Source: a virus
Taxonomy: Duplodnaviria > Caudoviricetes
Length of the DNA stretch: 27,532 bases
IMG/VR virus record: IMGVR_UViG_3300046777_000918
Span: 1-27,532 of that record
Direction: 5' to 3' (one strand)
The notes under the pieces were generated by a model that was given only the letters and a program-made list of their open reading frames with translations, ran no database searches and was not told the origin of the DNA. This document shows, piece after piece, positions 6,303-20,207 of the stretch (positions are counted from its first letter, which is position 1; each line of letters opens with the position of its first letter). The translations under genes and the position numbers were made by a program.

Positions 6303-7604
6303 TTACGAATCCTGCAATAGCGCAGGTTCAAATCTACAATAGGCACCTTCGTACCACATGGTGACGAATCCACATTCACCATCTCTTTGTTTAGCGATTG
6401 CCAGTGTTGCTTCTCCTTTTGCTTCGGTGCGTTCTCGGTCTAGTAGCAGCACGGTATCGGCATCTCGTTCGATCTGTCCGGAGTCTGCTAGGTCTGAAAG
6501 TCGTGGCTTGCGTCCCTTCTCCTTCTCGCTCTCCCGATTGAGCTGTGCGAGGCAGAGCATGGCAGTGTTTGTCGCTACTGCGCAAGCCTTCAGGGCTCCG
6601 CTGACCTCGGCTACTTCGTAGGTGCGCTTCTCGTGCTTTCCGGATGCCCTGACCTTCTGCAGGTAGTCGAGGATCACCAGACGCACGCCATGTTTACGGG
6701 ATGCCCTACGGATTGCTGCGATAATGGTGCCGATCTTGGCGTTGGCCGATAGATCGAGGAAGTGAAGAGGCTTGGATGAGATCAGCTTGATCGCTTGGGA
6801 CATGCGACCCATGTGGACGTCCGATAGCTCGCCGGTCTTGATGGCTTGCATGGGCACGTTGGCTACGGCAGAGACCAGACGTCGCATGAGCGCCTGCTCG
6901 GACATCTCACATGAGACGAACAAGGTTGGAACGTTGGCTTCGATGCATGCGGATTTAGCTACGCTTACGGCCATGGCTGTCTTGCCGATGGATGGACGTG
7001 CTGCGATGAGGGTCATCTCTCCGACTTGGATACCATCGGTAAGGCTATCGAGCTTTGGGATTCCGCTTGTGATGCCCGATAGTTGTCCCTTGCGCTTCCA
7101 ACGTTCCTCGGTGGCTGATACGAAGGCATTGACCACGTCCTTGGCGGTGGTGGAGTTCGGCGTCTGGTCCTGCTCCAGCGTGATACCGGCTTCGAGGTTT
7201 GCTAACGCTTGGTCCAATGGGACTGCCGCAGACGCTGTGTCCGCTAGGAGCTTTGAAGCTGCGTCACGGAGCTTGCGTCGATGATGCGCTTCTCGGATGC
7301 CAGTGATGTAATACGGCAGATTCGCCTCAGATGGACATGCCTGCATGGCTTCCATCCAGACGCTGGTTGGCAACCCAACGGATCCCTTGGTCTGTCTCCA
7401 AGCTCTGGTCAGGTTCTCGATCGAAGCCGACTTGTTGTCACGAGCGAGTACGGCGATGACCTCAAGGGTGTCCCGGATGTCCTCGTTGACTAGCATCGAA
7501 GGACTAACCTGAGCCACAGCTTCACTAGCCGTGTCGATGCTACCACCGATGCATGCCCCGAGGAAACCCAGCTCGTCGGATGGCGAGAAGTATGCCTCGG
7601 TCAT
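6303..7604 (-). CDS. dnaB: Replicative DnaB-like helicase
   Basis: AARPSIGKT (Walker A), SCEMS, LDYLQ (Walker B), AQLNR, DLADSGQIERDAD, KQRDG. Confidence 0.96.
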   Translation of the reverse strand: MTEAYFSPSDELGFLGACIGGSIDTASEAVAQVSPSMLVNEDIRDTLEVIAVLARDNKSASIENLTRAWRQTKGSVGLPTSVWMEAMQACPSEANLPYYITGIREAHHRRKLRDAASKLLADTASAAVPLDQALANLEAGITLEQDQTPNSTTAKDVVNAFVSATEERWKRKGQLSGITSGIPKLDSLTDGIQVGEMTLIAARPSIGKTAMAVSVAKSACIEANVPTLFVSCEMSEQALMRRLVSAVANVPMQAIKTGELSDVHMGRMSQAIKLISSKPLHFLDLSANAKIGTIIAAIRRASRKHGVRLVILDYLQKVRASGKHEKRTYEVAEVSGALKACAVATNTAMLCLAQLNRESEKEKGRKPRLSDLADSGQIERDADTVLLLDRERTEAKGEATLAIAKQRDGECGFVTMWYEGAYCRFEPALLQDS

Positions 7605-8404
7605 ATCCAGTCCTTCAGATCGAGTTCCTTCTTTACGGTGGGTTGAGGCGTCTGGAAGAGCTGAGGCGTTTCTGTTTTCTGACGCGCTTTGTCGATCTCG
7701 CCGTTCCAGTTGTTCAGCAGCGTGATGGGGTCCTTGCGGAGGTATTTGTCACCCGACAGATACCATCGCTCCAGAGCGTCGATGTCCTCAGGTGGAGTGT
7801 TGAGCTTCAGGACAGCCTTCAGTGCTCGGTTCTCCTTCTCGCTCCACTGAGTCGTGGGCCTACGCTTGAACCAAGACCCGATGCGTAGCCTGAGAGTCTC
7901 AATCTCTGGATCCTCGTCCGAGCCTGTATGGTTTAGAGTATTATAAGGAGAAGGAGATGGAGAGCTATCATTTTGCCATTCGTTTGCCATAGGCTCTGCC
8001 ATGCCTTCTGCCATTGGCTGTGCTATAGCTGAGCCATCATGTTTGCCATCATGTTTGCCATGTCCCCATCGGATTTCGGCCCCTTTTCGGCCACTTGTTG
8101 ATCTAGACTTGCTGAACTCCTGCTGTTCCTGACGAACGATCTCCAGCCTCTTATTCTTGAGGAGACCATCCACTGGGTCTTTTTCGAACTTAGCAAGCAC
8201 ATAGCAAATGGATGGCAAACCTATTAGCCCAGCCATCATTTCGGCACGCTCTTTGTCATCCGGAATCCCACCCTTGGTCCACTGATGGCAGAGCAGTCTG
8301 ATGAATCCACCCACTTCTTCAGCCTTCATGTCTGCAGTCCCGGCTAGAAAATCGTCAGCATAGAACTGAAACGCAGGGGCTTTCCTCTTATTGGTTGCGT
8401 TCAT
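7601..8404 (-). CDS. Replication initiator, DUF1376/YdaU-like
   Basis: PAFQFYADDFLAGT...EEVGGFIRLLCHQW and LKNKRL motifs; coupled to dnaB; repeat-rich internal linker. Confidence 0.8.
   Translation of the reverse strand: MNATNKRKAPAFQFYADDFLAGTADMKAEEVGGFIRLLCHQWTKGGIPDDKERAEMMAGLIGLPSICYVLAKFEKDPVDGLLKNKRLEIVRQEQQEFSKSRSTSGRKGAEIRWGHGKHDGKHDGSAIAQPMAEGMAEPMANEWQNDSSPSPSPYNTLNHTGSDEDPEIETLRLRIGSWFKRRPTTQWSEKENRALKAVLKLNTPPEDIDALERWYLSGDKYLRKDPITLLNNWNGEIDKARQKTETPQLFQTPQPTVKKELDLKDWI
7964..8061. repeat. Iteron-like array, candidate replication origin
   Basis: GC(C/T)AT cores at 7964, 7975, 7986, 7998, 8010, 8022, 8033, 8045 and 8057; four are TTTGCCAT. Confidence 0.75.
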
Positions 8405-8613
8405 TTAGACTCCTTTCCATCAAGGTAGTCTTTCCTGTTTTTCTCCGCGACGAGCTTCACCTTCTGAAGCATCTCGCAAACTTCATCCACCATGTGAGGC
8501 GCTATCAGGATCAGTGCGTCTTCGCCTTCGTATGACTTTTGCAGAATGCAGCAATAGCCTGCGTCTGATGCGTACAACTCGATGTGGTCTTGGCTTTGTA
8601 TTTCTAGGATCAT
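8401..8613 (-). CDS. Hypothetical protein, 70 aa (MILEIQSQ...)
   Basis: ATG at 8613 lies just after a structured RNA element; coupled to the initiator via AAGGAG-TCTAA-ATGA. Confidence 0.65.
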   Translation of the reverse strand: MILEIQSQDHIELYASDAGYCCILQKSYEGEDALILIAPHMVDEVCEMLQKVKLVAEKNRKDYLDGKESK

Positions 8614-8625
8614 GGGTAACAAAAA

Positions 8626-8713
8626 CCCCAGTCCAACCACCGCCGGGTCGCATAGGCACAACGCAGAAGCAGGAGATGCTTCTTGAAGCCTACCGACGGT
8701 AGCTGGACTGGGG
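8626..8713 (-). ncRNA. C4/CI-type antisense RNA candidate
   Basis: 21-bp stem (3 G-U pairs, no mismatch on the minus strand), two inner stems, and unpaired CGUUGU and UGCGAC complementary to upstream ACAACG and GUCGCA; followed by U5. Confidence 0.7.
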
Positions 8714-8731
8714 ATTCTGTTGTGGTCATGA

Positions 8732-8772
8732 CGTTGTTCGGGATGCGACTCCCGGTCCCTCACGCAAGGGAC
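8732..8772 (-). promoter_or_regulatory. Leader hairpins carrying the antisense target
   Basis: GUCCCU-UGCGUG-AGGGAC hairpin, then CGGGA-GUCGCA-UCCCG hairpin, then ACAACG. Confidence 0.6.
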
Positions 8773-8784
8773 AGTGCTGAGATA

Positions 8785-8970
8785 CTAGCGGCGCATCAGG
8801 TTGTCAATCTGAGCGTCGGTGAGTTTGTACTTAGGCGGCTGGATCCACCCGTTGAGAATTGCCCGATAAACGAGCTTCGGTGCGGCTTCGAGCAGCTCCC
8901 TCACTTCCGCGTCCGAGAGCTTCGGGTCTCCTTGGACTTCGTTTCCTCGCTTTTTGCTATGTAGTGCCAT
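8785..8970 (-). CDS. Hypothetical protein, 61 aa
   Basis: Co-oriented ORF; overlaps the upstream ORF by 70 nt. Confidence 0.45.
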   Translation of the reverse strand: MALHSKKRGNEVQGDPKLSDAEVRELLEAAPKLVYRAILNGWIQPPKYKLTDAQIDNLMRR

Positions 8971-12603: not shown

Positions 12604-12742
12604 ACGAATTATTGGTTAAGTTACTTGGTTTGGTTACTTGCTACGGGGAACAGTGAACCACAGGTCTGATGTCTCGTCTACAGAAAAGTACAGAAATCTT
12701 TCAGCACAGTTCTGACCAATGTTTACGGGCCTCTCGTGCGTG

Positions 12743-14657: not shown

Positions 14658-15478
14658 TCGGCCTCCGTGGTCTTGTGTGCTGCCACAGCCATTGTGAACG
14701 CCTCAGGCTTGCCGAGGATCTTAGCCGCCCGGGACTCGGACAAGTCCTTGATCGTCTCAGCAGCGGTGATCCATCCCTTAGCGATGAGGAACTCCCGGCC
14801 AGCAGCGAGCAGATCAGCCTTTGCCAGCAGCTCAACCACCTGAGCCTGCAACGTCAGCTTGGGCTCGTCTGATGCCGTGGTAGGCACCACCTCGACGTCC
14901 ACAGCTTTAGCCTGCGGTTGGGTAGCGAGTACCTGCACCGGAGAAGGCTGCGCGAAGTCGGCGATCTCCTCGGGCGTATAGGTGCCGGTGACAACCTCTG
15001 GGCAGAGCATGCGCACCGCCTTGGAGATCAACCGCGCACGCATCATTTCCGCTGGGAACTTAGCCCATCCAGAGCCACCACGCGCAGGGAGGAACCCGGC
15101 AGCCTTGGCGTCGTCCGAGGTGTAGGCTAGCTCGATGTCGTTGCCGTCGTAGATCCACTGAGCTTTGGCCCCGTTAGCGTCGAACTGCTTCCAGATGACC
15201 TTTCCACCGCGCTCGCGATAAAGGGCCAGCATAGCGTCTGCGCGCAGGCTCAAGCGTCCCTGAATGACGTGGTAGTGCTTGGCCAGCTCCAGCGGCGGCT
15301 TGCGCTCCACGATGCACTGGAGAGCTAAGAGATTGCCCTGCTCCGGACGGTCTGCACCGAACATGCCAGAGCGACAGATCCACTCACCTAACTGGGTAGC
15401 GGCTGCCATTGGGTCCTGAACTTTGTCGTATGTGTGCACTGCGTTCTGTTGCGTTGCGACTGCGGGTAGGTTGCTCAT
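14654..15478 (-). CDS. Single-strand annealing recombinase (RecT/Redbeta-like)
   Basis: HVIQGRLSLRADAM and WAKFPAEMMRARLISKAVRMLCPEVVTGTYTPEE. Confidence 0.8.
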   Translation of the reverse strand: MSNLPAVATQQNAVHTYDKVQDPMAAATQLGEWICRSGMFGADRPEQGNLLALQCIVERKPPLELAKHYHVIQGRLSLRADAMLALYRERGGKVIWKQFDANGAKAQWIYDGNDIELAYTSDDAKAAGFLPARGGSGWAKFPAEMMRARLISKAVRMLCPEVVTGTYTPEEIADFAQPSPVQVLATQPQAKAVDVEVVPTTASDEPKLTLQAQVVELLAKADLLAAGREFLIAKGWITAAETIKDLSESRAAKILGKPEAFTMAVAAHKTTEAE

Positions 15479-15627
15479 CGTAGGATGTAGGTTTGCTGGA
15501 TTGCTTTCTCAACCAGACTCTTGAGCTTGAATCCACCATCTCGGGCATATTCCACGAGCTTGGAGTGTAGCTTGGAGTCGATCTGCACGGTCTTGAGCGC
15601 GACCGGCCTGCGCGGTTTAGCTGTCAC
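15475..15627 (-). CDS. 50-aa ribbon-helix-helix regulator (not in ORF track)
   Basis: Translated by hand: MTAKPRRPVALKTVQIDSKLHSKLVEYARDGGFKLKSLVEKAIQQTYILR; strand KTVQI, helix, G-turn, helix; ATGA overlap with the SSAP gene. Confidence 0.72.
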   Translation of the reverse strand: MTAKPRRPVALKTVQIDSKLHSKLVEYARDGGFKLKSLVEKAIQQTYILR

Positions 15628-15684
15628 GGGTGAGTAGATACCGGACTGCTACTACCGCACAACACAAATCTACAGAAATCTACG
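15628..15684 (-). promoter_or_regulatory. Early promoter/operator region with GTAGA boxes
   Basis: AGTAGA-N11-TCTACT inverted repeat (15633-15655) and tandem GTAGATTT repeats upstream of the RHH gene. Confidence 0.45.
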
Positions 15685-16271: not shown

Positions 16272-19200
16272 TTACTGGAGCTTCTTCTGGATCATACGCT
16301 GCGCGTCATCCACGGAGCCGACGACGCCAGCCAAAGAACCATCTGGGGAGTATACCCTGAACTTGCTCTTGGTATTGCCCGGAATGATGCGGTAGCCTGA
16401 CATGGAGTAGGTGCCCGGGATGGATGGGTCGGGAACCGGGGCTGGCATATAGCGGATGTCCGGGCTGGAAGACTGGAATCGCTGGCTGAGAGGGATGATG
16501 TTGCCGGAGTCGTCGAGGGTAATTGGGTCGGCAGATTTGATCTGATTAGATGAGAAAACCGCATAGGTTGTCGTTGTACGGCTCTTTCCTTTGACACCGC
16601 TTTGATAGTCATCTTGAACGTTTTTAATAACAATCCCGTCGTTTCCAGCCTTCAAAGCGTCATTGATTGCATCGGTTGTACGTCCTTTTGTTTGAGCTGT
16701 CCTCCAATGCTCTCCTTTCGCATCAATGACAAGCGGGTTGGATAACTTAACGAATGTCTGAATCACCATTGGTTCAGCATTCTGGAAGTCCCAAGCCCTA
16801 GATTCCTTAGCGTAAGTCGAGGCCGTTTTTTGGCTTTCAGCAAACCAATGCACTCCAACGTCCTTGCCCATCCCGAAACGTTCCTTCTGAGACTTAAATA
16901 CTGGGTTTTCCTTAAGGAATCGACCATCTGGAGTTCCATGATACACCGGCCCCACCGTATACCCCGCCGCCTTCGCCGCCTGATCCACTAGTTCCTGCGC
17001 CTTCGCCGTATCTCCAGCTTCTACCGCTGAGAGGTACTCGGCGTCGGAGGGCATGAAGCGAGCGCCTACATCCCCCGCTTGTCGAACCGGCCGGTTGGCT
17101 TGCCCGCCTTCTTGGCCGCCTTCCGTGCGGTCGAGAGCGCGATTGCGATTGCCTGCTTCTGCGGTTTGCCAGACTTCATCTCGCGTCGGATATTGGAGCT
17201 GATCGTTTTCTGGCTGTAGCCTTGTTTGAGTGGCATTTGCTTTCCTTTGTGCTTGTTCTGCGGAGTCGTAGATCCCGAGGAGCTTTCCTTCAGGACCATA
17301 CAACCTAAACTTGTTGCCACTGGTCAGGATTGTGAACCCTGCACCAGACTTCCACGCCTGCTCCTCGCCAACGGATCCCGCAGGCATGAAGCGATCCTTC
17401 ATCTTCTTGTAGGCGCTCTCGGAGAACTTGGCCCTAAAATCAGACGGATCCATCTGACCCATGCGATCCAGACGGAAGCTGTGAATGAACTCGGAGCCAC
17501 CTTTCTCAAGTGAGTTCATAAAGTTCCCAAAGAACTCAGCCTTGTCCGGACCGAACAGGTTGCGGCTTGGAATAGCGTTCTCCTTGCGGTCAAGGTTGGA
17601 CAGATAGGCGTTCAGTTCTCCAAGGAACTCGCCAACGTTGCCCCACAGGCCACCAACGGAGCCGTCAGGACGGATCGAGCGTTGTAACGACTTCCTCACC
17701 TGCGTCAGGTCGATGGCTCGGACGTAGGAATTGTTTTCCTTGGACAGCAGCAGGTTGTACGGCAGCACTTCTCGGAACGTCACTCGCCTCGATGCGTACT
17801 TGGTGCGCCAACGCTTAGAGGTCGGATCCTGAACCTTCTCGGTGGCCGGGTAATACTCAACAAACAGCGACCGTCCTTCGTTGATGCTGCGATTGGTCAT
17901 TTCCAGCCGCTGCTGCATCTGAGACGACACCGAAGAACCCTTGATGGCGTCCAACTGTTCCGGGCTGAGATCGCCGACCACCTCGCCATTGATGTCGATC
18001 TTTGCTCCGGGCAGTCCGTCGATGATCTGCTTGAGTGCCGTGACGTCCCGGGTCTCACGCTGCAACAGCTCACCATTGGTCAGCAGCCGCACCTCGCCAT
18101 TAGGCAGGCGCTCCGCAAAGCCACCGCGGACCGCGTAATCCGCAGCCACTGGGTCCAGAATGGCCTTCTGGTCGATCTTGAAGGACTTCTGGTAGTCCGC
18201 GTTCAGCAGAGCCTCGTCGATGTTCTCACGGGCCTTCAGCAGCCTTCGCAGTGCAGCGTCCAGTGCCGGGGAGGCGTTCTTGATCTCTGGGAACAGAACC
18301 GAGTCCGTAGGCGTAATGCCGAACGTCCGCTCGATGAGTTGACCGATCTTTGACCCAACACGGCTTGCCTCCTGCAGCAACAGCATGTCGGTGAAGTTCT
18401 GCCGCGTAGATCCGAAACCGCGCAGGAATGCGTCTGGCTTCTGAGACGACAGGATTCGTCCTACCTGCTCCGCTGCCAACTCCTCGCCAACATACACCGC
18501 ACGGTCCGATGCCGTCGGATTTGCCGATATGACGTTGGCGCGTGCGTCCTCCGGAAGCTGTTTGACGTAGTCGTTGAAGAGCTGCTCAACCTTGGCTGGT
18601 GAGTATTGCCCTTCGCTTACCAATCGCACCGTCCCATCCGGGTTGGGCACATAGGCTCCGGTCAGAGTCTCTACGAATCCAGTGACGTCGCCTTGGAACT
18701 GCTTGGTCTTGGCCAGTGCGTGCAGCAGTTCGTGCCCCAGCGTGTAGATAGGACTGTCACCCTTCACCTTGGGCATCGCGTCTACATTGATGAGGATGCG
18801 CGGAGTGGTCGCATTCTCGTCAGGGACAACGCCACGAGCAGTGACACCAGCACGCTTCTTGAACTCGTCACCGCGCAGGATCTCGACACCAATGTCTCCG
18901 CGAGTGCCTTTGATGAGGCTCTCCAGATCCATCAGGTTGGCCGCAGTGTCAGTTCCGAACCGCTCTTGGACCGACTGGTAGGCCGCCTTCTTCTCCGGTG
19001 CCAGCGTGTCAACGTAGGTGGTCAGGTCGTTGAGTCGTGCCGCCTTAGCCTCGCTACCAGTCAGTGTTTGCAGACCACGAGCGCCAAGAGAACCAAGAGC
19101 ACCAGCCACACCTCCGGATCCAATTCCGGAAGCAGCTCCTTCTTCTCCGCCAGATAGATAACCAAGAGCACCACCAAGAGCAGCGCCTTCCAGCGTTCCA

Positions 19201-20207
19201 GCAGTGCCTGCAAGTGCAGTACGTAGTGCAGCATCTCCGCCATAACGTCCAATGGTTCCGATGATCCGCTGCCGCATGTTGGCCTCCGGGATTGCACCAA
19301 CAGCCTCCAAGGCACCGATACGGGTCGGCGCACGGCCCATCTGGGCACCGGCAGTCTCCAGAGCGCGACCAACGTCGGTGGCGGCTTCTGCGATGAACGG
19401 AACCGCACCAACAGCGCCAATGGCAGGACCAACACCGGTAGCCGCTAGAACGCCAGACGTGGTTGCCGCTCCGCGCAGGGCCTCTGGAGAGATTCCTGTG
19501 GCTTCCGTGACAAACTTGCCAGCAGCAGAAGAAAGACGCTCTACGGGCTTTGAGATGGCTTGGACACCCTTCCCAGCAACCGCAGCAGCCTTGCCAACAG
19601 CCTTGGCGGCAACCTTCTCAGCTCCCAGAAGCTGTCCAACACCGGGGACGAACATGGTCGGATCTGCAACCATGGCCACACCCTGAACAAACTCAGGATT
19701 GAGATCCTCGGGCTTGAACATGATCGACATGTCGCCCTTAGCATACGCGTCGAGATCCTTGTTGAACTGGCGAGCCTCGAGGAACTGACCGTATCTGTTC
19801 TCTAGCGTACCTGTTCCGCTTATAAGGTTGTTAAGCTTGAACAGTGCGGAGTTCGGATCCTGAGACTGAGCGACAAGCCCGTATAGCTGGGTAGTTCCTT
19901 GAGCAAGGCCTTCAATGTAGTTCTTCGGATTGAACGCAGCTCCAGTAGTAACCGCAGCCTTGCCAGCAGCTCCAGCAGTCTGGACTACCGTATCCGCAGC
20001 GGTCAGAAGGCTTTGTAGCCAGTCAGTCTGCCGGGTTTTGTTGTAGTCCTCGAAAAGCTGATACTGCTCCTGAGTGGGCGTGAAGTTCGGATCCTGAAGA
20101 GCGTTTGCAATGTCCTGACCAGTCGTCGGAGTATCTAGCAGGCTTTCAACGCTCCCTGCCGATTGTGGTCCTAGCAACGAGTCGATGTCAGCCTGAGATA
20201 GTGTCAT
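16272..20207 (-). CDS. Large ejection/polyvalent protein with HExxH metallopeptidase and ART-PolyVal-like ADP-ribosyltransferase domains
   Basis: Gly/Ala-rich membrane-like segments; HELLH (18720-18734) with downstream EELAAE; DAEYLSAV...VYHGT...ASTYA...[10 protein letters not shown]...[11 protein letters not shown]. Confidence 0.8.
17066..17236 (-). CDS. Nested out-of-frame small basic phage protein, 56 aa ([16 protein letters not shown]...)
   Basis: Closely resembles the widespread phage family [29 protein letters not shown] as I recall it; A-rich leader with AAGGA. Confidence 0.7.

Follow-up and report, generated by a model that had tools for sequence, protein, structure and literature searches.

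We found that the leader of a predicted phage replication operon carries an 88-nt antisense-type RNA hairpin in which two unpaired patches, a' and b', are complementary in nested order to two sites, a1 and b1, lying just upstream on the same strand. The window, by which we mean the whole stretch of DNA analysed here, is a 27.5-kb linear virus record (27,532 nt) with a completeness of about 74%. In the window and its relatives we observed the hairpin structure, covarying a and b matches, an open leader frame that overlaps the next start codon as ATGA, and no downstream target. The best explanation, to which we assign a probability of about 0.6 from sequence and analogy, is that the hairpin RNA acts in trans, blocks translation of the leader ORF and thereby uncouples ORF70, the initiator and dnaB, with recognition being allele-specific.

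The hairpin (8626..8713, minus strand) contains a 21-bp stem, an inner stem, a side hairpin, b' and a'. All parts of the 88-nt minus-strand element described in the initial annotation were recovered (8713-8626), including the five U that follow it (8625-8621). Its predicted fold consists of one long stem, the inner stem and a single side hairpin and places b' in an internal loop; the free energy is -57.2 kcal/mol (z -7.8, 0/200 shuffles), and the opposite strand reaches -44.2 kcal/mol. The 21-bp stem includes three G-U pairs. Fold energy and G-U pairs together favour an RNA of the sense strand, so the earlier argument that the stem deviates only by G-U pairs and thus points to the minus strand holds, with an advantage of 13 kcal/mol over the other strand. 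The stem starts with CCCC, and the 5' GG motif, the start described as the RNase P cleavage site of C4 in PMC5320573, is absent; in C4/CI systems this cleavage leaves an RNA of 77-80 nt.

The target region upstream is predicted to form two hairpins on the minus strand. In the sub-threshold alignment with the Rfam model c4-a1b1, hairpin 1 (8755..8772) matches the first hairpin of the model; hairpin 2 (8739..8754) displays the target a1 (GUCGCAU, 8749-8743). The second target, b1 (ACAACG, 8732..8737, minus), ends 2 nt before the AUG of the leader ORF. Within the hairpin, patch b' (CGUUGU, 8663-8658, minus) is the complement of b1, and patch a' (8653-8647, minus) is a 7-nt complement of a1. The two hexamers noticed initially, GUCGCA (8749-8744) and ACAACG (8737-8732), are indeed complemented exactly and in nested order by UGCGAC and CGUUGU; the first match had been undercounted, and extends over 7 nt (8749-8743 with 8653-8647), not 6. 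Both hexamers occurred in order in 11 of 20,000 dinucleotide shuffles of the upstream 77 nt, and all four patches are predicted to be mostly unpaired in the folded leader.

Homologous elements were collected from 80 of 237 viral initiator-relative loci, 3 ORF70-relative loci and 24 pattern matches. The element scan required a CCC/GGG stem, four T in the tail and a downstream ATG, and ignored the pairing patches and the upstream ATG. Elements were found in 100 of 108 loci, and 67 of them were distinct. Three elements that had been caught on the wrong strand were flipped, and one (L111) was added by eye, giving 68. The eight misses comprise four loci cut by contig ends, which are matched by model R2, three more distant versions and one locus without an element. 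The 68 elements fall into 22 of type I, which are window-like and 84-89 nt long, and 46 of type II (61-65 nt), in which b' lies in the apical loop and P2 is absent. Two further scans with the outer-stem sequence gave 235 matches in 228 loci, 63 of them with the inner stem and enough flank; 39 were distinct and 24 new. Three of these (L158, L215 and L329) were discarded as chance matches, with a match of only 3-4 nt and no target hairpin, leaving 21 held-out elements and 43 of type I in total. Model R1 had no match in four type II loci, and the window escaped model R2. Because these models barely cross-detect, we regard type II as a sister family on the basis of its architecture and context, and the covariation claimed for the window rests on type I. 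The type II elements (L006, L024, L073 and 43 others) lie upstream of the same initiator family and covary strongly, and none of the type II loci tested gave an Rfam match. The three distant versions (L077:2650-2813, L079:740-880 and L081:2270-2445) show an a match of 7-8 nt, a b match and a leader ORF ending in ATGA, and the type I model gives that of L081 a score of 27 bits.

An exact Watson-Crick complement of the a1 7-mer was present in the hairpin of 43/43 type I elements, 27-28 nt from the hairpin end, and 21 of these elements had been found by stem sequence alone. The complementarity on whose persistence in homologs the initial annotation had staked its reading is thus kept, through compensatory change. 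There are 12 a alleles in type I, 1-6 positions apart, and on a tree built without these columns they require at least 15 changes (11 being the minimum for 12 alleles). As the relatives share ancestry, the counts given here do not represent independent events. In type II, the a match covaries likewise and is present in 46/46. Non-cognate a pairs reached 7 nt in 0/56 and 0/12 cases. The a helix is free of G-U pairs, whereas the long stem has 119 G-U in 817 pairs (type I). In the 22-sequence type I alignment, changes on both sides were found in 6/7 a pairs and 8/19 stem pairs, and the observed covariation score was reached by 0/500 shuffles. The 19 stem pairs are 99.5% paired in this alignment, the GGG/CCC stem of hairpin 2 is invariant in 22/22, and six unpaired a cells appear to reflect a one-column misalignment of three rows. 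The b match is more variable: in type I it covers 3-8 nt (6 nt in the window) and is 4 nt or less in 12/43, with a mean of 5.3 nt for cognate versus 3.7 nt for non-cognate combinations (27 distinct pairs). In type II the b match is strong, with double changes in 6/7 pairs. The a alleles differ even among phages whose terminase and portal are 87-98% identical to those of the window, which is what one would expect if they determine specificity.

Control is probably exerted at a leader ORF that was overlooked in the initial annotation, as was the promoter-like site described below. This ORF (8610..8729, minus) has 39 codons and traverses the hairpin, and its stop overlaps the ORF70 start (ATGA, 8613-8610). 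In the homologs, the leader start codon follows b1 and lies 13-19 nt before the stem; it is AUG, with GUG once, and b1 stays within about 10 nt of it. The leader frame is stop-free across the hairpin in 67/67 elements and 21/21 held-out ones. In shuffles it was open at frequencies of 0.30 (type I) and 0.51 (type II), and because the +2 frame is likewise open (15/21 and 14/21), openness alone is modest evidence. The ATGA overlap between the leader stop and the next start is found in 41/43 type I elements, across six combinations of spacer, hairpin and tail length, and the gene that follows varies, including initiators of several PHROG families, HNH nucleases, methyltransferases and small ORFs. 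In type II, ATGA is present in 10/46, and the other leaders stop 9-47 nt past the hairpin. The leader peptide varies between relatives without conservation, and a Pfam search with it gave no match. An SD-like motif was found ahead of the leader in 0/43 and ahead of the next gene in just 7/43 type I elements. From these features, we predict that the leader ORF is translationally coupled to ORF70, the initiator and dnaB.

All annotated genes of the window lie on the minus strand, in the order RecT and exonuclease, resolvase, small genes, phosphoesterase, the element, ORF70, initiator-like gene, DnaB, terminase and SU10-like portal. ORF70 (8401..8613, minus) is the first gene of the predicted coupled series after the leader ORF. 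A longer frame of 120 aa that contains it (8763-8401) has no Pfam or PHROG match; it was dropped as a gene start, as it traverses the target hairpins and the relatives of ORF70 begin past the hairpin. The next gene (7601..8404, minus), whose start overlaps the ORF70 stop via ATGA, is likely the replication initiator, as judged from sub-threshold DUF1376 matches, PHROG "primosomal protein" matches, its place before dnaB and internal iteron-like repeats; these repeats (7982-8062) suggest a lambda-O-type origin. Its stop is overlapped by 4 nt by the gene for a DnaB-like helicase (6303..7604, minus; PF03796, E 1.8e-69). Elsewhere on the minus strand, a small unannotated ORF before recT (15475-15600) resembles, by eye, a ribbon-helix-helix (Arc/CopG-like) repressor, and the intergenic stretches at about 12660-12700 and 15630-15681 have a common 11-nt motif with promoter-like spacing and are likely early promoters. 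The interval 16272-20207 encodes a polyvalent protein of 1311 aa with a C-terminal ART-PolyVal ADP-ribosyltransferase domain, whose relatives vary widely in length.

Upstream of the target region is a predicted promoter-like site (8779..8807, minus) composed of TTGACA (8807-8802), a 17-nt spacer and TATCTC (8784-8779). As it ends 6 nt before hairpin 1, transcription would start near 8772. The same arrangement of -35, 17 nt and TA at a fixed distance is found in 55/68 elements and in 20/43 of type I, by a pattern written post hoc. The -10 box is atypical, with its final T missing, and a consensus promoter scan of the window missed this site and found no plus-strand promoter. After the hairpin comes a U-rich tract (8618..8625, minus; 7/8 U), a possible intrinsic terminator tail. 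The tract reported earlier is present in the window, where a consensus terminator scan missed it. At least 5 T of 8 follow the hairpin in only 26/43 type I elements, and the tract is poor in 17/43. From one sequencing run, probably of DNA, a few short pieces at low depth fell on the element, and three other runs gave none.

The mechanism that we favour may be described as follows. Transcription would start at the promoter near 8772, and a ribosome loading at the leader AUG would cross and unfold the hairpin and reinitiate at ORF70, so that the replication genes would be made. On an untranslated leader the hairpin would fold, and transcription would stop at the U-tract or by polarity; the stopped leader, whole (about 150 nt) or trimmed, would accumulate as the repressor. 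The repressor would dock via a' on the a1 loop, which would give specificity, and b' would pair beside the leader AUG and block initiation. Since one sequence would be either message or repressor, we propose that initiator synthesis would be subject to negative feedback and that phages carrying the same allele would be excluded. Promoter use, the free RNA, action in trans, the direction of the effect and its outcome are modelled on the precedents of P1, P4 and R1. Several features favour this explanation. First, the 7-nt a match is kept in 43/43 through 12 alleles and at least 15 changes, a non-cognate match never reaches 7 nt, the a helix avoids G-U and the alleles are diverse among near-identical phages. 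Second, the leader frame is open and ends in ATGA in 41/43 over varied next genes, with few SD-like motifs. Third, the downstream target is missing, and P1 offers a parallel in the 4-nt coupling of icd-ant1 with b2 before icd. Counting against it, all of the pairings could also form in cis, 12/43 type I elements have a b match of no more than 4 nt, the U-tract is poor in 17/43, the RNase P-type GG is absent and the -10 box is atypical.

The possibility of pairing in cis leads to another explanation, which we consider unlikely though worth serious attention, namely that a1:a' and b1:b' form within one transcript, as an intermediate or pseudoknot that competes with the ribosome at the leader start, with no diffusible repressor and no immunity. 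The nested order of the patches permits this, and a nascent transcript ending at 8640 is predicted to fold with a1:a' and b1:b' paired intramolecularly at -44.8 kcal/mol. The single target set and the absence of the RNase P-type 5' GG also fit a purely cis-acting switch, and covariation is blind to the difference between cis and trans. However, a merely structural helix need not diversify into 12 recurring alleles or avoid G-U, and the RNAs of P1/P7 and P4, which have the same a1 hairpin, work by an antisense mechanism according to PMC5320573 and PMC4825925. Cis and trans pairing may both occur.

The remaining explanations fit less well. It is improbable that the element activates rather than represses, in the manner of IsrK of Gifsy-1, with a short RNA opening the leader and switching the replication genes on. 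According to PMC4825925, IsrK is a structural homolog of P4 seqA and activates orf45-anrP through coupling; the element has a weak isrK match (RF01394, 12.5 bits, E 7.3, gathering threshold 50), and in the predicted full fold the leader AUG pairs with the ORF70 start region. Against this, CAUG at both starts is found in only 17/43 type I elements; moreover, pairing at b1, 2 nt before the AUG, would hinder ribosome loading, and the IsrK-like part of the element is the target, not the binder. It is quite improbable, too, that the hairpin serves mainly as an intrinsic terminator or attenuator whose effect is lifted when the leader is translated, with the a and b matches being secondary: the window has 7/8 U after the stem and the leader ORF of every relative runs through the stem, but the tract is weak in 17/43 while the a match is perfect in 43/43. 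Finally, targets elsewhere (other phage genes or host mRNAs), as with the co-opted C4-like RNAs proposed in Acinetobacter in the excerpts of PMC5320573, or a role of the structure as single-stranded DNA near the origin, are very improbable, since a' changes together with the a1 upstream of it throughout the relatives, the many G-U pairs and the strand bias agree with RNA, and the one a-then-b coincidence in the window (18808/18826, non-coding strand) is differently spaced and antisense to its gene. This plus-strand site (18808-18831) contains the exact a and b words in the right order at a distance of 18 nt; it lies antisense to the gene of the polyvalent protein and is probably due to chance.

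With regard to family membership, the window element reached the gathering threshold of no Rfam model. RF01695 (C4, gathering threshold 45 bits) gave no match up to E 10 in the window and none in two sets of 16 homolog loci, and the controls P1 C4 and P4 CI scored 68.8 and 74.9 bits. For RF03163 (c4-a1b1), the upstream part aligned over the full length of the model and on the right strand with 20.6 bits (E 0.014), below the threshold of 46.7, and 1/16 homolog loci gave 21.2 bits. The c4-2 RNA, described in the supplement of PMC5737381, gave no match up to E 10 in the whole-Rfam scan. The Rfam comparison proposed in the initial annotation is therefore divided, with the target region aligning to c4-a1b1 below threshold and the hairpin matching no C4-clan model. 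The statement that there is no second downstream target proved right for the whole family. Exact copies of a within 600 nt downstream numbered 3 in 68 elements (3.07 expected) and 0 in 18 further elements (0.64 expected), which is the chance level, and the positive control recovered a2 and b2 of P1. As a canonical set, we used 11 above-cut-off Rfam C4 matches from a 151-genome sample together with P1 and P4. Of these 13 loci, 12 had a1 upstream and 10 had an exact a2 no more than 7 nt downstream, and by eye a terminator-like hairpin mostly lies between b1 and C4. An AUG near b1 opening a frame across C4 that ends at the next start was found only in P1. Because the Rfam thresholds were failed and the second target and the P2/P3 layout are absent, we do not file the element as a C4 member, but it probably works like C4/CI, with a homologous target region.

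The comparison with known systems draws on PMC2864571, PMC5320573, PMC4825925, PMC5737381, PMC8201110, PMC3632133 and PMC8053102. Like P1/P7 C4 (RF01695 and RF03163, clan CL00128), the element has two hairpins that begin 6 nt after a promoter (a promoter-like site in the element, the annotated P1c4 promoter in P1), a 7-nt target in the second loop, an a' just 5' of the 3' arm of the long stem and a b site adjoining a start codon. It also has a small ORF that would be coupled to the next gene, as P1 couples icd and ant1 by a 4-nt overlap with b2 just before icd. Compared with P1/P7 C4, it lacks a2/b2 and has no hairpin resembling a terminator in the stretch from b1 to the RNA; P2 and P3 do not form distinct arms, the 5' GG and the 3' CCA are absent, RF01695 is blind to it, b' lies in an internal loop instead of the apical loop of P3, and the genes that follow are initiator and dnaB, whereas P1/P7 C4 controls ant. 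In P1 (L114:368-568), a 66-codon frame, unannotated in the record, begins at b1, passes through C4 and ends 2 nt short of the start of icd. This frame was once regarded as coding for a c4 protein. The specificities of P1 and P7 C4 differ by 4 changes according to PMC5320573.

In P4, translation of the eta frame across CI prevents termination. An AUG after b1 of P4 opens a frame that stops at the CI start, whereas the frame of our element crosses the hairpin. The a1 allele of P4, GUGAGAA, is shared by 4 elements of type I and 16 of type II. In P4, a1 is 160 nt from CI versus 36 nt from the RNA in the element, and P4 differs from the element in carrying a copy of the target downstream and in that the following gene has a start of its own. 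As PMC4825925 describes, P4 CI, with seqA and seqC, is a same-strand antisense RNA embedded in the replication-gene leader, as predicted for our element, and controls those genes. The setting recognised at first, with replication genes instead of an antirepressor, therefore stands, but it is not a departure from known systems, because P4 CI already does so. IsrK-orf45-anrP of Gifsy-1 has a short RNA nested in a long mRNA and a small ORF with a variable peptide coupled to the next gene, as would the element. IsrK differs in being an activator and the 5' hairpin unit, while the binder of the element would be the downstream hairpin, and the terminator hairpin of IsrK is absent here; PMC3632133 calls the mechanism of an IsrK-like sequence unclear. 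In R1 (CopA/tap/repA) and IncI1/IncB (Inc/repY/repZ), antisense RNA blocks a leader peptide coupled to the initiator, according to PMC8053102. The element has a leader ORF that overlaps the next start codon as well (ATGA in 41/43 type I elements), but the RNAs of these systems come from the opposite strand, whereas that of the element would be sense-strand RNA from within the leader ORF and would pair by two short patches. A search of literature largely outside subscription journals gave no description of this element family.

The lifestyle of these phages bears on what such a switch would do. Two complete genomes of 63-66 kb with type I elements encode tyrosine integrases. Among the ORFs scanned, the close relatives G003, G005 and G006 had no integrase, resolvase or ParA, and only a weak co-directional HTH. 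Given these absences in the three closest relatives tested, the clade of the window shows no evident lysogenic state that immunity would protect. G003 (41.7 kb) is estimated as complete but linear, and its 524-aa ORF gave no useful match in Atlas. In G005, the recT-exonuclease-resolvase block (G005:C1:29726-32422) is inverted compared with the window and G006, by an assembly artefact or a real inversion. The element is also found in a phage with a lambda-type terminase (G004). Comparison of L111 with the window gave 98% identity for DnaB but 34% for the initiator, indicating from sequence that initiators are exchanged among near-identical phages. L111 is a 40-kb phage contig in a Rubrivivax-labelled bin, possibly mis-binned, with a different a allele and with terminase and portal 97-98% identical to those of the window. 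As it is a phage contig near-identical to the window, the Rubrivivax label gives no host. Three of five bins with initiator relatives are labelled Verrucomicrobia, a weak host lead. A search with the type I model gave no match in 4 bins that contain initiator relatives, nor in two samples of 151 genomes (phylum and order of the Pedosphaera-labelled bin), where only 17 candidates per genome were scored, which makes the latter result uninformative. Cultured phages gave no DNA match and one weak protein match.

From this setting we tentatively put forward a further idea, which we rate as doubtful. In a podovirus-like clade without detectable integrase, partition or divergent repressor, the element could be an RNA-only replication switch, in which early ribosome loading, or its failure, would decide if the same 150 nt serve as leader mRNA or as diffusible repressor, and the 7-nt allele would sort co-infecting phages into incompatibility groups and set initiator output in a non-integrated carrier state. 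If true, the two-patch recognition of the C4 type would here be merged with the leader-peptide copy control of plasmids.

In conclusion, C4/CI-type RNA control is catalogued for Proteobacteria and their phages in PMC2864571, and the element described here would carry it to uncultured phages missed by Rfam. The element would be a compact relative of C4/CI, with one target set and one leader ORF, and this minimal form makes the role of the upstream a1/b1 (seqA) sites directly testable. It also suggests that the 66-codon frame across C4 in P1 is regulatory, not incidental. In addition, the 12 natural and mutually mismatched alleles would provide a ready set of orthogonal RNA switches.
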